Positions 29,748 through 50,155 of a stretch of DNA of 64,000 bases are shown in pieces. The stretch's first letter is position 1. The number at the start of each line of letters is the position of its first letter. A program made the translations under genes and the position numbers. The notes beneath the pieces are model-generated. The model worked only from the letters and a program-made list of their open reading frames with translations, was not told the DNA's origin and ran no database searches. Source of the stretch: an uncultured Verrucomicrobiae bacterium (GTDB lineage: Bacteria; Verrucomicrobiota; Verrucomicrobiia; Chthoniobacterales; JAFAMB01); NCBI GenBank assembly GCA_963762565.1, contig CAVXLD010000012.1, forward strand, positions 96,001 to 160,000. Reading direction: 5' to 3'.

Positions 29748-29822
<75 letters not shown>

Positions 29823-41068: not shown

Positions 41069-42133
41069 ATGACTTCTCCTATCTCAATCCAAGAACTCAA
41101 AACGCGTGTATTGACCGGCTCAGTGGTGGCCACGGTTTTTGGACAGGTGGAGAGCATCACAGAAAAACAGACCCGGGATCAAAAACCGTATTTCGAGCTC
41201 GTGGTGCGGGACCTGGTGGGTTCACTCACGATTCGGGTATGGAACGACCACCCGGCCTTCAGTTTCTGTGGGGAAACCGTTGCCGGCGCTGCGGTTTGTG
41301 TCGAAGGCGAGTTCTGGAGTGGGAACTCGTACGGGATCGAGGTGCGAAATTGGCAGATACGAGATCTCACTGCGGAAGAAAAATCGGTGCTGTTTGAAGG
41401 ACCAGAAGAATTGCGGCAGCAGCAGGAGAGAGATTACGCAGAGATACTCAGTACGGTCGAATCGATCAACGATCCGCGGCTCCGCCGCCTGGGAGAATTG
41501 TTTTTGACCGAGTTCGGCGAGCGATTTCGCAGAGCGGCCGGCGCCCGAACCGTACATCACGCTCGGCGAGGCGGCCTGGTTCAACATGTGGCTCAAATGT
41601 TGCGCACGGCAGACGCTATCACGGCCACTTACCCTGCGCTCAATCGTGATCTCCTCATCGCGGGAACTCTTTTCCATGACGCGGGCAAAATGTGGGAGAA
41701 CAATTTTCCTAAAGAAAGTCTGCAGATGCCGCACGATTTGTACGGCGAACTTCTCGGTCACATCAGCATCGGCGCCGAGTTCGTGAACCGCTTGTGGCAG
41801 AAGTTGCGGCAGGAGAAAGAATTTGAATCTTGGAAGGATCTGACGCCCGAAAGCGATCTGGTGCGGGTACATCTGCTGCACCTGGTCATCGCGCACCACG
41901 GCGAACTAGAGTTCGGATCACCGGTCGAGCCAAAGACGCCCGAAGCTTGGGCCTTGCATATGATCGACAATCTGGATGCGAAACTCGAAATAATCTTTTC
42001 CGCCTACCGGACAGCACCGCGTTTGACTCCCCAGATCCTGGACAGGGTCAGGCCGCTACACTCGAACCCGGTGGTCCCTCTGCCGAAATTTGGCGGGCCG
42101 AAGCCGTCAGGGGGAGAAGACGAGAGGAGCTAG
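41069..42133 (+). CDS. OB-fold plus HD-domain protein, YhaM/Cbf1-like 3'-5' exoribonuclease
   Basis: HHARRGGLVQH, FHDAGK, LLGHI, AHHG, IDNLDAK. Confidence 0.85.
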   Translation: MTSPISIQELKTRVLTGSVVATVFGQVESITEKQTRDQKPYFELVVRDLVGSLTIRVWNDHPAFSFCGETVAGAAVCVEGEFWSGNSYGIEVRNWQIRDLTAEEKSVLFEGPEELRQQQERDYAEILSTVESINDPRLRRLGELFLTEFGERFRRAAGARTVHHARRGGLVQHVAQMLRTADAITATYPALNRDLLIAGTLFHDAGKMWENNFPKESLQMPHDLYGELLGHISIGAEFVNRLWQKLRQEKEFESWKDLTPESDLVRVHLLHLVIAHHGELEFGSPVEPKTPEAWALHMIDNLDAKLEIIFSAYRTAPRLTPQILDRVRPLHSNPVVPLPKFGGPKPSGGEDERS

Positions 42134-42208
42134 CAGGGCTAGCTCGTAATCGTTCTCGTCGTCGTCCTCGAAAAGGTCTTGCCCAGCGCTTCGAATTGGC
42201 CCGCAGCG

Positions 42209-42415
42209 TGGAGGGGAGCCGCTTTGTAGCTTGGCCAAGCTCTATCGGTTGCTAGCAGGCGGCTCCCGGAAACGGTCCCTGATGCGTTTGTTCTATCAAC
42301 TCTGCAAGCCCATTTCCGAAAGGCCGAGCGGTAATGGAATACACTGGGTTCTTCCCGGGAGCCGCTTGCTGCCACCTCATAGAGCTTGGCCATCCTATAA
42401 AGCGGCTCCCCTCCA
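42209..42415. repeat. Family C element nested in a second inverted-repeat pair (about 42144-42173 and 42456-42480)
   Basis: tggaggggagccgcttt..aaagcggctcccctcca, flanked by taatcgttctcgtcgtcg and cgacgacgggaacgatta. Confidence 0.8.
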
Positions 42416-42482
42416 GCGCCCCAGAGCAATTCCAGACGCTAGAACAAAAAACCGATTTCGACGACGGGAACGATTATGACAC

Positions 42483-42520
42483 AAGAAAAGAACGGCCAAA
42501 CGTGTCTCATTTGGCCGTTC
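42483..42520 (-). terminator. Intrinsic terminator
   Basis: gaacggccaaatg-agaca-cgtttggccgttc-ttttctt on the minus strand. Confidence 0.85.
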
Positions 42521-42650
42521 GCACATTTTGCGAGCACTTGGTCAGGATGAACGGCCGGCCCGGTTTCCCGGCGCTCCATCTTGCGACGGGTCACTAGAAA
42601 TCCGACCTTGACGTTGCCCTTCGTGAAACGCCCATCCCTCTTTCAAGAGC
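42483..42650 (-). ncRNA. Candidate structured non-coding RNA followed by an intrinsic terminator
   Basis: Closing helix ggatgggcg/cgttcatcc; hairpins cgtc-GCAA-gatg, ccgg-GAAA-ccgg and ggtc..gacc; 13-bp terminator stem plus ttttctt. Family not recognised. Confidence 0.5.
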
Positions 42651-42703
42651 GGTAGCAAAACGAGTCTCTCGACTAGGACAGCAGTAAAACGGTCAGAGCC
42701 GCT

Positions 42704-45700
42704 TTAAGCAAGCGCGGGTTCCAGTTTTCTTTCCGTCTCGGGCTCAATCTCGCCACGCCGTTGGCGGTCTTTGGTATGGTCTTTAGCCAGTACCAGGTAG
42801 AACGACGGCACTACGAATAGTGTGAAGCAAGTTCCGATGATCATGCCAGTGACAAGCACCCAACCGATACTATTTCGAGCCGCCGCACCGGGTCCGGTGA
42901 CCAGAATCAGCGGAAAGTGACCTGCCACTGTCGCTACCGAGGTCATAAGGACCGGCCGCAAGCGGGTGCCTGCGGCTTCCAGAATCGCGCTAAACTTATC
43001 TAATCCTTGTTCCTGTAACCGGTTTGCCCACTCTACGATCAAGATTCCGTTCTTAGAAACTAGCCCAGTCAGCGTGATCAGGCCGACTTGGCTATAAATG
43101 TTGATCGACGTGTTACCAAGAAAACAGAAAGTAAGCGCTCCAACCAAAGCTAGAGGTACTGATCCGATTAGAATAATAAACGGGTCCCGGAAGCTTTCGA
43201 ACTGCGCTGCTAACACGAGATAAATGACGACCAGGGACAAGATCATCGTTGGAACAAACGCATTTCCTTCCACTCGAAGTTGGCGCGACGACCCTTTGTA
43301 ATCGATCGAATAGCCGCGAGGTAGAATCTTGGCGGCTTCGTCTTCCAAGAACTTGAGACCTTCATCCGCCGTAGCCGGCGGCCGGATAACCCCGCTGATG
43401 GTCACGGAGTTCAGCTGCTGCATGTGGTTCAAGGTCTCGGGTTGGACCTCTCGTTTTAAACTGGCAAACGTTCCAAGTTGGACTGGCGTATTGTTTGGCC
43501 CGCTCACGTAGAGCTTAGTTAGGTCCTCCGGAGTCAGTCGCTGAGTCCGCTGTACCTCCGGAATTACTTGATAGCTTCGCCCCTGAATATCGAAATAGTT
43601 TATGTAGCCTGCGCTTAAAAGCGTAGTCAGATCACCGCCAACCTGTTGCAGGTTTAGGCCCATCGCAGCAACCTTGTCGCGATCAAATACGATCCGGGTC
43701 TGGGGCTGATCGTATTTCATGTCGGAATCAGCAAAATAGAATTTCCCGCTTTTGTTGGCTGCAACCAATAGCTGGTTCGACAGCTCAAACATCTCCAACG
43801 GTTCCGCTACAGAATTGATAACAAACTCGACGTCATAGTTATCGCCTCCGGGCAGAGGTGATGGGGTGAGCGCAATAACTCGCACCCCAGCGACGGTGGC
43901 TAGCTTTTTACTCACATCTCCCAGGACTTGTTGCATGGTGCGTTTACGCTCGCTCCATGGTTTGGCCACCATTCCGGAGAAACCGGGACCGGGGACCGGA
44001 GTGACCTGAAAAGTCTGCGCCGTCTCAGGCTCACTCTTATAGATGTCGTTCATCTCCTTTGCGAAAAGCATCGTCTGCTCGAGCGTTGCTTCCGGCGCCG
44101 ACTGTACGATACCGAAGATAACACCCTGATCTTCATTGGGTGCTAGTTCATGCTTCGACATGTTCCAGAAAAAGTATAGAAGCACCCACAGAACCATCGA
44201 AGAACACAGGACAACCCATCTCACGCGCAAAGTAGTAAAAAGAAGTCTCTGATAGCCTTTGCGGAGCGAATCAAACCGTTTACTAATCCATCCTGCCAAG
44301 CCCCTCTCACTCGCACCTGGCTTCAGCAGCTTCGATGACATCATTGGTGAGAGGGTTAACGCGACCACACCGGACACCACGACTGCTCCTGCGAGAGTGA
44401 ATGCGAACTCGCGGAAGAGTGCACCGGTTAGTCCACCCTGAATCCCGATAGGCGCGTACACTGCAGCCAAGGTGAGGGTCATCGCGATAATCGGCCCGAA
44501 GAGCTCGCGTGCCCCTTTTATAGCAGCTTCGTATGGCGAGAGCCCTTCGTGGATATGCCGTTCCACGTTCTCGACAACGACAATCGCGTCGTCGACCACC
44601 AAACCCACTGCCAGGACAATCGCCAGCAAGGTCAGCAGGTTCAGCGTGAAACCGAAAATCAGCATCAGGAACATGGCCCCGATCAACGAAAGAGGAATGG
44701 CGACGATAGGGATCAGTACCGCTCGGAGCGAGCCCATGAACAGACAGATCACAACCATCACTATCAGGATCGTCTCAACCAGGGTCTCCGTTACATCGTG
44801 GATGGCGCTGGCGATGTAGTCGGTCGAATCGTACGGGATATCCAGCTTCATGCCGACCGGGAGCTCTTTTTGGATCTCCGGAAGCGCTGCGCGTACGGTC
44901 TTGATAACGTCAAGGGCGTTCGCGGTCGGGAGCACGTAGATGCCCATGAAGGTGGCGGTATTTCCCGAGAAGCGAACGTCCGTGTCGTAGTTCGAGGCGC
45001 CCAGTTCCACCTTCGCGATGTCTTTTAGACGCACGATGGCGCCGTTGTTCTGCTTAACGGCAAGCTCTTGGAATTCCTGCGGACTTTGCAGGTTTGTGTT
45101 CGATACCAGGTTGACTGCGGTCATGGCGCCCTTGGTTTGACCTGGGGCCGCCAGATAGTTATTCGACTGGAGAACGTTCTGCACGTCAGTGGGCGACACG
45201 TTCAAGGCGGCCATTTTTTCAGTGTCGAGCCAAACCCGCATTGCAAAGACACGCCCACCCAGAATTTCGGCCTGCTGAACCCCTGAAATTGCGGCCAGCT
45301 TTGGTTGAACAACCCGAGTCAGGTAATCGGTGATCTGATTGCGGTCGAGATCCGTTGAGTAAAAGCTGAGATACATCGAGGCAAATCGAGTATCGACCGA
45401 GGTGATCGCGATAACCGGTATCTGCGACGCGGGCGGCAGCTGATTCCGAACCTGGTTAACCTTGGTTTGCACCTGGGTCATGGCCGCATTCGGGTCGTAG
45501 TTCAGCTTTAAATGAACGGAAATCGTGCTCGTGCCTTGGACACTCTGCGACTCCATATAATCGATCCCATCAGCACTGGCGATCGACTGTTCGAGAGGCG
45601 TGGTAATAAAGCCGCGGACCAATTCAGCGTCCGCACCGTAGTACGTAGTCGTGACCGTTATGACCGATATATCCGTCTTCGGATACTGGCGCACGTTGAT

Positions 45701-45793
45701 ACTGCGCATCGCCTGATAACCGGCGAGCAGGATCAGCAGGTTGATGACGGTCGCTACAACCGGTCGTTTGATGAAGAGGTCCGTAAATTTCAT
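42704..45793 (-). CDS. RND efflux permease (AcrB/MexW-like)
   Basis: FIKRPV, GLVVDDAIVVVENVER, KNGILIVE, RLRPVLMT. Confidence 0.96.
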   Translation of the reverse strand: MKFTDLFIKRPVVATVINLLILLAGYQAMRSINVRQYPKTDISVITVTTTYYGADAELVRGFITTPLEQSIASADGIDYMESQSVQGTSTISVHLKLNYDPNAAMTQVQTKVNQVRNQLPPASQIPVIAITSVDTRFASMYLSFYSTDLDRNQITDYLTRVVQPKLAAISGVQQAEILGGRVFAMRVWLDTEKMAALNVSPTDVQNVLQSNNYLAAPGQTKGAMTAVNLVSNTNLQSPQEFQELAVKQNNGAIVRLKDIAKVELGASNYDTDVRFSGNTATFMGIYVLPTANALDVIKTVRAALPEIQKELPVGMKLDIPYDSTDYIASAIHDVTETLVETILIVMVVICLFMGSLRAVLIPIVAIPLSLIGAMFLMLIFGFTLNLLTLLAIVLAVGLVVDDAIVVVENVERHIHEGLSPYEAAIKGARELFGPIIAMTLTLAAVYAPIGIQGGLTGALFREFAFTLAGAVVVSGVVALTLSPMMSSKLLKPGASERGLAGWISKRFDSLRKGYQRLLFTTLRVRWVVLCSSMVLWVLLYFFWNMSKHELAPNEDQGVIFGIVQSAPEATLEQTMLFAKEMNDIYKSEPETAQTFQVTPVPGPGFSGMVAKPWSERKRTMQQVLGDVSKKLATVAGVRVIALTPSPLPGGDNYDVEFVINSVAEPLEMFELSNQLLVAANKSGKFYFADSDMKYDQPQTRIVFDRDKVAAMGLNLQQVGGDLTTLLSAGYINYFDIQGRSYQVIPEVQRTQRLTPEDLTKLYVSGPNNTPVQLGTFASLKREVQPETLNHMQQLNSVTISGVIRPPATADEGLKFLEDEAAKILPRGYSIDYKGSSRQLRVEGNAFVPTMILSLVVIYLVLAAQFESFRDPFIILIGSVPLALVGALTFCFLGNTSINIYSQVGLITLTGLVSKNGILIVEWANRLQEQGLDKFSAILEAAGTRLRPVLMTSVATVAGHFPLILVTGPGAAARNSIGWVLVTGMIIGTCFTLFVVPSFYLVLAKDHTKDRQRRGEIEPETERKLEPALA

Positions 45794-45810: not shown

Positions 45811-47028
45811 TCAGCTATTCGCCGGTGTTGGTGATGCCTCACTATCGGGCTGTACCTTATTATTGATCAGGACAGGTGCCCCGCTTCTTAGACGGAATAC
45901 TCCTGAGGTCACAACCTCGTCACCCGGCTTCACCCCTGAGGTAACCGAAACCAGGTCGCCGCGTGCTGACCCGAGTTTGACGAATTGCTCCTTTACACTC
46001 TTGATCGGTTTGCCATTTTCGTCTTTATCGTCGGTCACAAGAAAGACCGAATCACCGTACGGCGCGTAATGCACCGAGGAAACCGGCAACGCGATAACCT
46101 TTTCGCGTTCGGGCATGATCACGCTAACTTTTCCAAACATGCCGGGTCGCAATTTCTGCTCACCGTTTGGTAGGGTGGCCTGCACCTGTACGTTTCGGGT
46201 CGCTTGATCTACCAGCGCGTTAATGGCTGTGATCTTACCCGTAAAAGCGCTGTCGCCGTACGCATCCAACCGTAAGTTGACATCCTGACCGCAGGCTAAC
46301 TTGCTGACGTCTTGCTGGGGCAACGTGAAGTTCACATAAATCGGGTCAAAGGATTGCAATGTGACGACGGCATCACCCGTGTTCAGATATTGGCCAAGAT
46401 TCACTTGGCGGATACCGACCATACCATCAAAAGGCGCGCGCAACGTCTTTCGCGCGATCAGCGCTTTATATTGGTCAACCGTTGCCTGCATTTGCCCATG
46501 AGTCGCTTCGGCCGTGTCATAGTCTTGCTGTGAGATGGTCCGCTTAGCGAGCAGATCCCGATCGCGGGCCAAAGTCAGCTGCGCAAGGGTCAGTTGGGCC
46601 TGCGCTTGTTCGAGTTGGGCTTGTTCTTGGTCGGTATTGAGATGGACCAATAAGTCGCCGGCTTTCACCAGCGTGCCGGAGGTGAAGGCAATCTTATCCA
46701 CTATCCCGGCTAGGTCCGTGCTGACGGTGACACCGTTTATCGCGGTTACGTTGCCAATCGTATCCAGGGTGGGTTGCCACTCCGACTGTGAGGCAATCGT
46801 TGTAGTTACTGCAGTCGGGGGTTGTTTGAACATGCCTGCTTTGGCCATGGCCATGAAACCCATGATCTGGGTGACCTTGAAATAACCGAGCACTCCAATG
46901 ATCGCGACCAAAAGCACAATCGCAATCAGAATGGCTCGGATGTAGGGTGGTCGCCGTTTCTTTGGCGCCGAAACAGTCTTTGACGGGGCACTCTTCGTTG
47001 AAGGCGCGGACGAAGTCGCGGGGGTCAT
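45811..47028 (-). CDS. RND efflux membrane fusion protein
   Basis: TM anchor, lipoyl-like halves (GTLVKAGDLL, LRAPFDG), LRPGMF. Confidence 0.94.
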   Translation of the reverse strand: MTPATSSAPSTKSAPSKTVSAPKKRRPPYIRAILIAIVLLVAIIGVLGYFKVTQIMGFMAMAKAGMFKQPPTAVTTTIASQSEWQPTLDTIGNVTAINGVTVSTDLAGIVDKIAFTSGTLVKAGDLLVHLNTDQEQAQLEQAQAQLTLAQLTLARDRDLLAKRTISQQDYDTAEATHGQMQATVDQYKALIARKTLRAPFDGMVGIRQVNLGQYLNTGDAVVTLQSFDPIYVNFTLPQQDVSKLACGQDVNLRLDAYGDSAFTGKITAINALVDQATRNVQVQATLPNGEQKLRPGMFGKVSVIMPEREKVIALPVSSVHYAPYGDSVFLVTDDKDENGKPIKSVKEQFVKLGSARGDLVSVTSGVKPGDEVVTSGVFRLRSGAPVLINNKVQPDSEASPTPANS

Positions 47029-47049: not shown

Positions 47050-47598
47050 TTAAGCGGCAGTATTTGCCAGAGCCGGTAAACGCTCCGCCAACTCGGCGAG
47101 GCGTAGTTGGATTTTTTGTAGGATATTAACGAGCTGCAGACGCTCTTCCTGGCTTAAAGGTGCGATGATGCTGGTGAACCACTCGCAATAGGGCGATCGA
47201 ACCCGATCGAGCAGTTGTTCACCGCCTTTTGTCAAGTAAAGGCGGGTTAACCGTCTATCTTGCGGATCGGGTTTGCGCTCAACCAGGCCATCCTTCTCCA
47301 AACCGTCCAGCAAACCTGAGATGGTCGCCCGCGTCACTCCGGTCTTACCGGCAAGATCAGCCGGCGTAATTTCGCCGGGTCCGTGTTTATCTAAAAGCAT
47401 CAACAGCACGAACCGGCCGTGGCGCGTACCAAGTGCCGCTAGGATGGCTTCATCGAGAGCCAGTAATTCGTCTCCGGTGCGCAAGAGCTGCAGAAAAACG
47501 TAACAGGCGGACGCATCGAGCTCGGGGAACCGTTTGCTGTCCTCGAGGAAAACCTCGTATTTTGGCAGCGATTTCAACAGAGTAGCGGGCTCCCTCAT
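47050..47598 (-). CDS. MarR family transcriptional regulator
   Basis: TPADLA..VTRATISGLLDGLEKDGLVER..DRR..LT. Confidence 0.92.
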   Translation of the reverse strand: MREPATLLKSLPKYEVFLEDSKRFPELDASACYVFLQLLRTGDELLALDEAILAALGTRHGRFVLLMLLDKHGPGEITPADLAGKTGVTRATISGLLDGLEKDGLVERKPDPQDRRLTRLYLTKGGEQLLDRVRSPYCEWFTSIIAPLSQEERLQLVNILQKIQLRLAELAERLPALANTAA

Positions 47599-47600
47599 AA

Positions 47601-47640
47601 AGTTAGCGTACCTAATTATTAGGTTCCTAACTATTGTCAA
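47601..47640 (-). promoter_or_regulatory. Palindromic operator and -35 box upstream of marR
   Basis: agttag-cgt-acctaat-t-attaggt-tc-ctaact, with TTGACA on the minus strand at 47635-47640. Confidence 0.7.
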
Positions 47641-47777
47641 GGGCGGCTTTTTGCAAGCACTTGCTTTCAAATTACAACAGGGCGGTCGGCGCCCTGGAGC
47701 GCTGCCTCGCTTGCGAGGCCGTTGTTGGCCAGGGCAGAGAACGTTCACGGTCCGTAACGGCGCACACCCGCCTCAAT

Positions 47778-48258
47778 GGGGCTTTCGCATGCTCAGGCTC
47801 TCAAACACAAGGGAGGGATCACGTCCTCGCGATCCTCTCGTGAGCCAAACCCAGCGTGTTCGGATGTCGGGGACGGAAATACGCCCGGAGACCTGGTGCG
47901 TTTTCTCACGGCGCGCGAGGACGCGCGCCCTCCCGCGACAGGGGCTTTCGCACGCTCAAGGTCTCAAACACAAGGGAGGGATCGCTTCCTCGCGATCCGT
48001 GCGTCACCGAAGCCCGCCGTGTTCGGATGTCGGGGACGGAAATACGCCCGGAGACCTGGTGCGTTTCTCACGGCGCGCGAGGACGCGCGCCCTCCCGTAA
48101 TGGGCCTTTTCGCATGCCCAAGGTCTCAAACACAAGGGAGGGATCGCGTCCTCGCGATCCGTTCGTCACCGCAGCCCGCCGCGTTGGGATGCCGGGGATG
48201 GAAATACGCCTGCAGACCTGGTGCTTTTCTCACGGCGCGCGAGGACGCGCGCCCTCCC
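47778..48258. repeat. Three tandem units of about 162 bp, each a family B REP doublet (BIME/REPIN-like)
   Basis: aaacacaagggagggatc at 47803, 47966 and 48128; each unit ends cggcgcgcgaggacgcgcgccctccc. Confidence 0.92.
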
Positions 48259-48277
48259 TTGGCTCTCGCCTCGCGTA

Positions 48278-50155
48278 TCACACCACATTCTCGGACCGGT
48301 TGAGGCCGAACTGTTTTTCTAGAAAGATAGTAACGAGAGCGATATCTGCCGGTGTAATCCCACTGATGCGTCCGGCTTGACCCAAGGTAGCAGGGCGGAT
48401 CTTCAAAAGCTTTTGGCGCGCTTCCGCCCTCAGCCCAGCGATCTGGCCATAGTCCAGCTCGGCTGGAAGAAATCGCGACTCTGCCCGATGCGCCTTCGCG
48501 ATGGCGCCTTCTTGTCTTCGGATATAGCCCTCATATTTAGCGTCGGTCTCCACCTGCTCCCAAATCTGGCGGCCGTACCTGGCGATCAAATCGACAGGGA
48601 TATCGTAACAGTCGAATTCAGGACGCCTGAGCAGTTGATCCAGGCGTTGGCCATCCAAGCGAACTGAGGCTGCCTCCCGTTTTGCAGCATCGATCTGCTC
48701 TTGCTTGGCTTCGACTTGTTTCCTTCGCTCGTCCGAGATCAGACCGGCATCATAACCTTTCCGGGTCAGTCTGAGGTCGGCGTTATCCTGGCGAAGCAAC
48801 AAACGGTATTCAGCCCGGCTGGTGAACATCCGGTAAGGTTCCTGAGTTCCTTTTGTCACTAGATCATCGATCAAGACACCGATGTAGGCCTCTTCCCGTC
48901 CAAGGATAAATTCCTTTTTCCCTTGGAGCCGCAACGCCGCGTTGGTACCGGCAATTAGCCCCTGGGCGGCCGCTTCCTCATATCCCGACGTCCCGTTAAT
49001 TTGACCGGCGAAAAAGAGCCCAGGTATCGACTTGGTTTCCAAAGTGACGCGGAGCTGAGTTGGAGGACAAAAATCGTATTCCACCGCGTAACCGGGTCGG
49101 ATGATTTCCGCATTCTCTAATCCAGGAATGGTCCGGATGAAGGCATACTGCACCTCAAACGGAAGGCTGGTGGAGACACCGTTCACATAATATTCATGGG
49201 TTTGCCGGCCTTCGGGTTCGAGAAACAACTGATGGCGTTCCTTCTCGGCAAAACGGACTACTTTGTCTTCGATCGAGGGACAGTAGCGAGGACCGACTCC
49301 CTCGATTTTCCCGGAATACATCGGCGACTTATCAAGATTGCCCCGAATAATGTCATGGGTTTTGTTGGTTGTGGCGGTGATCCAGCACGGAATTTGTTCC
49401 ACGTGGAACATGCCATCTACGCCTCGATTCAACGTAAACGGCGGGCCGCCTCGGACCTCGCCCTCTGTGTAAGAGAATCGAGGCGGCGGTTCATCGCCAT
49501 CTTGGCGCTCGCATTGACTGAAGTCGATCGACCGTCCATTGAGCCGGCACGGCGTCCCGGTTTTGAACCGGCCCACTTCAAACCCGAGCGCCCTTAAATC
49601 ATCACTTAATGTCGAGGGAGCGTCACCCATGCGTCCACCCGCTACATTCTGTAATCCGACGTGTAACAACCCTCGCATAAATGTCCCGGTCGTCACCACC
49701 ACGCTCTTTGCTTTCAAGCGAAGGCCAAGATTGGTCTCTACACCGCACGCTCCGTCTCCATCCACCAAAATCTTCGCCACGTTGCCTTGCAAAAGTGCCA
49801 GCCGGGGAGTCGACTCCAGGACCTCTTTCATCCGGAATTGATAAGCTTTCTTGTCCGATTGCGCCCGGGGCGCCCTTACACTTGGGCCCTTGTTCGCATT
49901 CAACATCCTGAACTGGATACCGGTCGCGTCTGTATTTTCGCCCATCAAACCACCCAGAGCGTCGATCTCTCGAACCATGTGACCTTTGGCTAGTCCGCCC
50001 ACGGCCGGGTTACACGACATCTGCCCGATCGTATCCAGGTTCTGTGTTAATAGGAGGGTGTCGCAACCCAAGCGAGAAGCAGCAGCCGCGGCTTCAATAC
50101 CCGCGTGTCCACCACCGATGACCACGACATCAAATTCCTGAGGATACAACCACAT
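48278..50155 (-). CDS. mnmG: tRNA U34 carboxymethylaminomethyl modification enzyme (GidA)
   Basis: GGGHAG, MSCNPAVGGLAKG, GPRYCPSIEDK, AGQINGTSGYEEAAAQG. Confidence 0.98.
   Translation of the reverse strand: MWLYPQEFDVVVIGGGHAGIEAAAAASRLGCDTLLLTQNLDTIGQMSCNPAVGGLAKGHMVREIDALGGLMGENTDATGIQFRMLNANKGPSVRAPRAQSDKKAYQFRMKEVLESTPRLALLQGNVAKILVDGDGACGVETNLGLRLKAKSVVVTTGTFMRGLLHVGLQNVAGGRMGDAPSTLSDDLRALGFEVGRFKTGTPCRLNGRSIDFSQCERQDGDEPPPRFSYTEGEVRGGPPFTLNRGVDGMFHVEQIPCWITATTNKTHDIIRGNLDKSPMYSGKIEGVGPRYCPSIEDKVVRFAEKERHQLFLEPEGRQTHEYYVNGVSTSLPFEVQYAFIRTIPGLENAEIIRPGYAVEYDFCPPTQLRVTLETKSIPGLFFAGQINGTSGYEEAAAQGLIAGTNAALRLQGKKEFILGREEAYIGVLIDDLVTKGTQEPYRMFTSRAEYRLLLRQDNADLRLTRKGYDAGLISDERRKQVEAKQEQIDAAKREAASVRLDGQRLDQLLRRPEFDCYDIPVDLIARYGRQIWEQVETDAKYEGYIRRQEGAIAKAHRAESRFLPAELDYGQIAGLRAEARQKLLKIRPATLGQAGRISGITPADIALVTIFLEKQFGLNRSENVV
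49395..49410. promoter_or_regulatory. parS site inside mnmG
   Basis: Perfect palindrome TGTTCCACGTGGAACA. Confidence 0.85.

Follow-up and report, generated by a model that had tools for sequence, protein, structure and literature searches.

CpxQ, SroC and MicL are short, Hfq-dependent small RNAs (sRNAs) of enterobacteria that derive from 3′ UTRs and carry linear seeds. A closer counterpart to the RNA described here is AbnZ of Caulobacter crescentus, an sRNA derived from the 3′ UTR of the acrAB-nodT RND operon, which is an Hfq-independent RNA of 108 nt whose simple hairpins bear C-rich loops for pairing with G-tracts, and which represses tamAB via its apical loops (PMC11724286). Within the 64,000-nucleotide stretch of DNA analysed here, which we call the window, a conserved RNA of about 190 nt (42483..42675, minus strand) lies behind an RND operon in the genome of an uncultured Verrucomicrobiae bacterium (G000). 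Like AbnZ, it sits at the 3′ end of an RND operon that has a small-molecule-responsive repressor at its head or in control of it; both RNAs use the terminator of that operon, and both carry functional (AbnZ) or conserved (here) sequence in apical loops; AbnZ is independent of Hfq, and neither Hfq nor ProQ was found in our genome, which is 93.7% complete. The two have no sequence or structural homology, however, the RNA described here being about 190 nt long with two three-way junctions and purine-rich loops. With CpxQ, SroC and MicL it shares its location, an A/U cleavage-like box or a candidate internal promoter in the upstream coding sequence, and the terminator of its parent transcript, but it is far more structured.

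The RNA thus described is a new family of an already known kind, the structured regulatory RNA borne in a 3′ UTR, and its fold is unusually complex for a 3′UTR element. To our knowledge, almost no regulatory RNAs have been characterised from the Verrucomicrobiota, and this one is a well-supported new family from uncultured soil members of that phylum, tied to a MarR-controlled operon for multidrug-type efflux. An RNA this elaborate in the 3′ UTR of a MarR-controlled pump would be a second independent case, after AbnZ, of a pump operon with a riboregulator at its 3′ end.

The operon is read on the minus strand. At its head stands a gene for a MarR-family regulator (47050..47748; PF01047, E 1.1e-15), followed by the genes for an RND periplasmic adaptor of 405 aa (45811..47028; TIGR01730, 261.7 bits, above the cut-off of 94.9) and for an RND permease of the AcrB family, 1029 aa (42704..45793; PF00873, E 1.1e-258), which scored 1112 bits against NF033617, under the cut-off of 1250. 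The RND stop codon, from the list of open reading frames, lies at 42704-42706, the first hairpin of the RNA (P0) starts at 42674, and the terminator follows at 42520-42490. This is the layout of a 3′UTR-derived sRNA and is found in 55/55 loci, with the RND C-terminus directly 5′ of the RNA in every one; the spacer between stop codon and P0 measures 28-36 nt across homologous loci and about 28 nt in the window. Facing the operon on the plus strand (41069..42133) is a gene for an HD-domain protein of 354 aa (PF01966, E 5e-9) that resembles the 3′-5′ exoribonuclease YhaM (NF010007, E 1.3e-37, 129.6 bits, below the cut-off of 460). Such a convergent YhaM-like gene stands 3′ of the RNA in 43 of the 55 loci, the other loci having short flanks, and it is the neighbour of the RNA in every genus; no gene on the same strand was seen 3′ of the RNA among the 55 loci, some of which have short flanks. 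An earlier note on this DNA had offered a structured 3′ UTR as its fallback reading, and that reading fits the location best. The gap of about 355 nt between terminator and YhaM-like gene holds a minus-strand ORF of 96 aa (42139-42429), which matched nothing in Pfam or NCBIfam; as the DNA past the terminator is also unalignable among congeners, this ORF is probably not a gene.

The RNA extends from P0 to a U-tract, as delimited by a covariance-model match (42675-42521, equivalent to G000:C12:138521-138675) together with the terminator. P0 (42663..42674) is a 4-bp hairpin with a GAGA tetraloop, AGUC-GAGA-GACU, paired in 98.6% of alignment cells and nearly invariant, three of its four pairs being unchanged in 39 distinct sequences and small changes occurring only in divergent genera. 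It adjoins P1 without a linker. P1 is a long-range helix of 8 bp that joins 42662-42655 to 42531-42524; its 5′ strand (42655..42662) reads CGUUUUGC and its 3′ strand (42524..42531), which ends 3 nt 5′ of the terminator, reads GCAAAAUG, and the helix emerges from RNAalifold and from covariation, with 5/8 pairs changed on both sides. Continuing the closing stem, P2 pairs GC and CUUG (42644..42650) with CAAG, U and GC (42534..42540), all four CUUG/CAAG pairs having changed on both sides in an alignment of 54 sequences, and P2b pairs GGAUG (42633..42637) with CAUCC (42545..42549), with both sides changed in 5/5 pairs. The stem P1/P2/P2b opens into an inner three-way junction from which two arms, P3 and P4-P5, emerge. 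P3 (42610..42632) has a 6-bp stem, paired in 94.6% of cells, and an 11-nt loop (42626-42616) with a predicted mean unpaired probability of 0.70 that holds an invariant GAAGGRC block, kept in all clades including what we take to be a degenerate copy in one genome (G009); it reads GAAGGGC in genera g1 and g8 and GAAGGAC in g4. P4 joins GGUCG (42603..42607) to CGGCC (42553..42557), is paired in 97.5% of cells and has changed on both sides in 4/5 pairs; beyond these 5 bp come an irregular internal region and then P5 (42563..42594), which consists of GU/AC pairs, a conserved GA/AA internal loop, an 8-bp helix, CCCGUCGC/GCGCCGGG, and an apical loop of 8 nt (42582-42575). P5 is paired in 92.2% of cells, 8/10 of its pairs have changed on both sides in the 54-sequence alignment, and its loop (predicted unpaired probability 0.47) holds a conserved AUGGRGC block.

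A terminator hairpin (42490..42520) forms the 3′ end; of its 13 bp, 7 are G-C, its stem core reads CGGCCAAA/UUUGGCCG, and the U-rich tract UUUUCUU (42483..42489) follows it. The combination of a G+C-rich hairpin and a U-tract (TTTTCTT in the DNA) is that of an intrinsic terminator, as the earlier note had supposed when it called the terminator strong, and the hairpin is the sole terminator-like site that a scan returned on the minus strand. Its stem core is nearly invariant across genera, and the hairpin is conserved also in two homologues (G014 and L095) that lack the U-tract. Since hardly any linker separates P0, P1 and the terminator, these three form a second junction. Counted from P0 to the U-tract the RNA is thus about 190 nt long, and the 165 nt given before was too short. 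Across the family the frozen parts are P0, the GA/AA loop, the two apical loops and the terminator stem, while the helices and the strands of the inner junction vary; nucleotide conservation peaks in P0 and the apical loops rather than along the strands of the junction.

Comparative analysis establishes the fold, strand, conservation, location and non-coding nature of this RNA. Among 54 distinct sequences, standard pairs fill 90.8% of cells, compared with 34-40% when the partners are slid by 1-3 columns, and 33/44 pairs show double changes against 9-19 in the slid controls; 0/500 column shuffles of the 54-sequence alignment reach any of five measures. In a set of 39 sequences, 94.8% of cells are paired and 26/44 pairs have changed on both sides. 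Both alignments were fitted to the covariance model, and their numbers are therefore biased towards the fold. Structure-blind MAFFT alignments submitted to RNAalifold return the same helices, with 12 compensated pairs each, as do separate minimum-free-energy folds of 11 divergent members, so that three independent approaches (RNAalifold on MAFFT alignments, single-sequence folds, covariance-model alignments) agree on the fold. The 54-sequence alignment and the covariance model suffice to seed an Rfam entry.

The strand follows from the balance of non-Watson-Crick cells: G-U occurs in 238 and A-C in 40, which places the RNA on the strand of the pump gene. On this minus strand the minimum free energy is -75.1 kcal/mol (z -2.28, with 3/200 shuffles as good), and an RNA on the plus strand was rejected (z -0.55, with 55/200 shuffles as good), the G-U and A-C counts also speaking against it. 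A small protein was rejected as well: the sole recurrent AUG, in the P5 loop, is absent in 13/54 sequences, and the frames run for 3-60 codons and diverge after about 6 residues.

Homologues in related genomes and covariation, two of the checks named in the earlier note, both came out positive for its central proposal, a structured RNA without coding function that is read from the minus strand, immediately behind the RND ORF; the details of its fold fared less evenly. The cttg/caag helix is part of P2 and is paired in 84% of cells across 54 homologues, and of a helix drawn with 9 bp the first 5 bp are borne out (85% of cells) and the last 4 bp are not (67%). The pairing ggtc/gacc has to be given up, since one of its pairs fails in 30/52 sequences despite 80% of cells paired overall, and so do the hairpins cgtc-GCAA-gatg (53% of cells) and ccgg-GAAA-ccgg (59%). 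Their place is taken by P3, P4 and P5, which are 92-97.5% paired, and the two supposed GNRA tetraloops are accordingly no loops of that kind: GCAA is a helix strand and loop edge, and GAAA belongs to the conserved GA/AA internal loop. The only genuine GNRA loop, GAGA, is that of P0 (42674-42663), outside the core of about 110 nt recognised before. A possible extended -10 element had also been placed at 42657-42649; this sequence lies within the covarying strands of P1 and P2, downstream of the invariant P0, and being internal to the structure it cannot be the promoter of the RNA.

Known RNA families do not account for the locus. Rfam 15, searched over the whole window at gathering thresholds, returned only a tRNA at 29751-29822 and nothing at the RNA, which agrees with the earlier view that it stands outside known families; at E<=10 it added two chance matches on the terminator (17 bits where the threshold is 55, and 13.6 bits where it is 48), and on eight homologue loci it gave only chance matches to miRNA models, outside the element. 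The RNA was not found described in the literature, including a term search of a 2026 preprint on noncoding sequence space. The suggestion of an atypical 6S RNA did not hold: 6S RNA (RF00013) is of similar size (about 180-190 nt), highly structured and present in one copy per genome, but it is a rod with a large central bubble resembling an open promoter, whereas this RNA is branched, with two three-way junctions and no central bubble, and no 6S model matches at the locus. The best 6S match of the genome is a full-length candidate outside the window, at G000:C12:361132-361312 (locus L187), which scores 37.7 bits (E 1e-5), below the gathering threshold of 46.4. The sponges of CsrA, CsrB and RsmY, likewise have purine-rich, GG-containing hairpin loops, and the genome has CsrA genes; those sponges display multiple GGA loops, however, whereas here there are two candidate loops that read GGR, with some members lacking GGA in both, and because GGA is not conserved in the loops we reject a CsrA sponge.

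Could the RNA be a sensor? It resembles riboswitch aptamers in that a covarying P1 closes a three-way junction beside an intrinsic terminator, and riboswitches that control antisense RNAs occur in Listeria and Clostridium. Here a ligand might set whether the terminator gates antisense read-through into the convergent exoribonuclease gene, the antisense strand of the HD-domain gene being all that lies downstream. We consider this highly improbable. Riboswitches are found in the 5′ leader of the gene they control and conserve a pocket in junction or bulge, whereas this RNA follows a gene, its junction strands vary, and its conservation resides in the apical loops, P0 and one internal loop; moreover, its terminator is very stable and invariant, and no Rfam aptamer matches it. 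A putative antiterminator, in which the 3′ strand of P4 would pair with the 5′ arm of the terminator, was perfect by eye in G000 only and was dropped for that reason.

How the RNA is made can be approached through the short spacer between the RND stop codon and P0. Across 52 distinct spacer sequences an A/U box, TTTTACT in the window (42683..42689, minus strand) and TTTAACT or CTAAATT elsewhere, lies 5-9 nt 5′ of P0; by its sequence it may be either a -10-like promoter element or a processing site. A candidate -35 element, TTGCTT (42706..42711, minus strand; TTGCYT as consensus among homologues), covers the final RND codon together with the first stop-codon base, 17-18 nt before the A/U box; for TTGCYT across the homologues this distance is 17-19 nt. 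In the codons preceding the stop, synonymous third positions are frozen at Ala(-4) (GCG, 0.98) and Leu(-3) (CTT, 1.00), with Pro(-5) free (0.42), which argues for a signal at the nucleotide level in the 3′ end of the RND gene. Such a signal would fit a weak promoter from which transcription starts at P0, and it would fit a processing signal; a gene for RNase E/G is present in the genome. The promoter-like hexamers are weak, reaching about 8/12 in the best clade by our own reading, a sigma-70 scan found 0 sites, and sigma-54 and ECF-type motifs, sought by eye in the spacers, were not conserved.

Contigs of relatives (85-95% identity) from soil RNA libraries cover the element in 4/4 runs, as sequences that carry neither ends nor strand and may include DNA carry-over. 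Those of X16, X17 and X18 bridge the RND coding sequence and the element, which, with the same reservation about DNA, is compatible with co-transcription of pump and RNA; in X15 only the element is covered, contigs of X15 and X17 extend past the terminator, and gaps and depths are uninterpretable. The promoter-like arrangement could be taken to mean that the RNA is a free-standing sRNA gene, transcribed from its own promoter only, that has no functional tie to the pump and just happens to sit between two convergent genes. TTGCYT, the spacing of 17-19 nt, the A/U box at a fixed distance from P0, the frozen wobble sites and a predicted start that falls at P0 all accord with this idea, but the hexamers are too weak for the scan to register any, the X18 record and the contigs of X16 and X17 run out of the coding sequence across the putative start, and in 55/55 loci the RNA keeps a fixed distance from the RND stop; we therefore regard it as very unlikely.

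The distribution of the RNA follows the pump. The element is single-copy in its genome, in keeping with the earlier remark that it matches none of the window's repeat families, and a repeat was therefore rejected; the terminator core recurs once. A BLAST search of 41 related genomes found it in 5/5 congeners, at 78-89% identity, and recovered parts of it from four genomes that belong to three other genera. An exact two-block pattern was present in 12/43 genomes of the family and, in a species-representative collection, on 11 contigs, all of them MAGs of Chthoniobacterales/Verrucomicrobiota and identical to known family copies. A slightly relaxed pattern yielded 46 metagenome loci, 35 of which are true copies behind the C-terminal codons of a pump; the other 11 (9 distinct) were dismissed as chance matches, 0/9 scoring with the covariance model. 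A second covariance model, built from 40 sequences, detects one copy each in 30/43 family genomes and in 7/11 genera, and under stricter Infernal filters the covariance model found none in 135 genomes of 15 sister families of Chthoniobacterales (0/135), from which we conclude that the RNA is restricted to one family of uncultured soil Verrucomicrobiota. The YhaM-like gene, by comparison, is present in 97/101 genomes of the order, yet an RND gene beside it was found at 0/21 loci from other families, indicating that the RNA travels with the pump operon and not with the nuclease gene. A role as general cofactor of the YhaM-like enzyme is correspondingly unlikely, given an enzyme in 97/101 genomes and the RNA in 0/135 of other families.

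Four genomes of the family (G052, G053, G015 and G024) have lost the RNA or carry something else in its place, with both flanking genes intact. G052 (L154, ~2520-2567) represents a natural deletion, in which about 45 nt containing a small hairpin separate the stop codons of the pump and the YhaM-like gene; in G053 (L157, ~2511-2857) an unrelated insert of about 345 nt occupies the place of the RNA, and in G015 and G024 other sequence fills the gap between pump and nuclease. By eye, the G053 insert resembles the remnant of a PIN/VapC-type gene. When six RNA-less family loci were searched with the covariance model and its filters off, G009 gave a weak syntenic match (E 0.075), which we take to be a degenerate copy that retains the P3 loop block; a non-syntenic match in G015 (E 0.38) was taken as chance.

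These losses bear on another possible role, that of an element acting purely in cis, which would stabilise the pump mRNA against 3′-5′ decay and, as a bidirectional terminator, insulate the operon from the YhaM-like gene. The fixed position at the 3′ end of the operon, the RNA-library contigs that join coding sequence and element, and three genomes (G014, G020 and G023) in which the stop codon of the convergent gene abuts the terminator hairpin are in keeping with it. A simple hairpin would suffice for such a task, however, leaving 150 nt of covarying helices and invariant loops unexplained, and G052 manages without the RNA on only about 45 nt between the genes. We therefore think a purely cis-acting role quite unlikely.

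The RNA is probably a regulatory RNA made together with the pump. Our favoured reading, put forward tentatively and by analogy with AbnZ of Caulobacter, is that of an RNA borne in the 3′ UTR, co-expressed with the pump and acting in trans through its two purine-rich loops; its biogenesis, its action in trans and the loops as its active sites are all things we infer. On this reading the 3′ UTR of the marR-adaptor-RND operon encodes a stable RNA, about 190 nt long, that would be transcribed with the pump mRNA and either cut free at the A/U box 5′ of P0 or made also from a weak promoter over the RND stop codon. Since RNA and pump operon have a common terminator, at which the RNA ends, its level would follow induction of the operon. 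P0, the closing stem and the terminator, joined at one junction, would together with the inner three-way junction form a rigid scaffold that displays the GAAGGRC and AUGGRGC loops, and these may act in trans, the target being either other transcripts or a binding partner, so as to extend the regulon of the pump as AbnZ does in Caulobacter. Frozen loops on variable helices and a variable junction point to recognition through displayed loops and not to a ligand pocket at the junction.

Several observations count against this reading. Neither Hfq nor ProQ turned up in the 93.7% complete genome, and the hexamers of the putative promoter are weak. A scan for complements of the loops near gene starts in the window gave nothing convincing, only 7-mers at chance level, one of them 28 nt upstream of marR with a mismatch in G000. 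Loops rich in purines would find their pairing partners in pyrimidine-rich sites and not in ribosome-binding sites. A covarying scaffold with a GA/AA loop and a GNRA hairpin is more typical of RNAs that bind proteins or ligands than of base-pairing sRNAs, and the loss of the RNA with its neighbours intact (G052, G053, G015, G024) likewise weighs against the idea.

Why, then, keep the loops? The 3′ end of 16S rRNA reads CCUCC. By our own reading, the loop sequences GAAGGR and GGRG could pair with it, and the RNA might serve as a decoy or scaffold for a protein or the 30S subunit, to which it would offer its GAGA hairpin, its GA/AA loop and a pair of Shine-Dalgarno-like loops, so that a partner would be titrated or recruited while the pump operon is on. 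This, too, is unlikely in our estimation, though it deserves serious weight, as it would account for the invariant sequence of P0, the internal loop and both apical loops on helices that covary freely, and for a terminator stem that is frozen in sequence as well; the genome also has two CsrA genes (G000:C6:58907-59056 and G000:C3:26264-26410). Set against it, the GGA that CsrA requires is not conserved, G001 having GGG in both loops, there are two candidate loops only, and one or two sites would make a poor sponge. In a related version, to which we give a rather small chance, the element would be a sensor or ribonucleoprotein module borne in the 3′ UTR, and no base-pairing sRNA, whose rigid two-junction fold would bind a protein, the 30S subunit or a small ligand and so couple efflux induction to translation or RNA decay. 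Binding of a protein, the ribosome or a ligand by the loops, if borne out, would amount to a new mechanism joining efflux to post-transcriptional control.

Two further observations concern the surroundings of the RNA and its operon. The core of the terminator, CGGCCAAAT...ATTTGGCCG, recurs once in the genome, at G000:C7:566215-566241 (locus L129, 1501-1527), within a longer perfect palindrome just after an ABC-permease-like ORF and between flanks unlike the RNA. At the other end of the operon, the DNA that separates mnmG (48278-50155) from the marR-like gene contains a GC-rich unit of about 175 nt repeated three times in tandem (47790-48290, minus strand), at the expected site of the promoter or leader of the pump operon.
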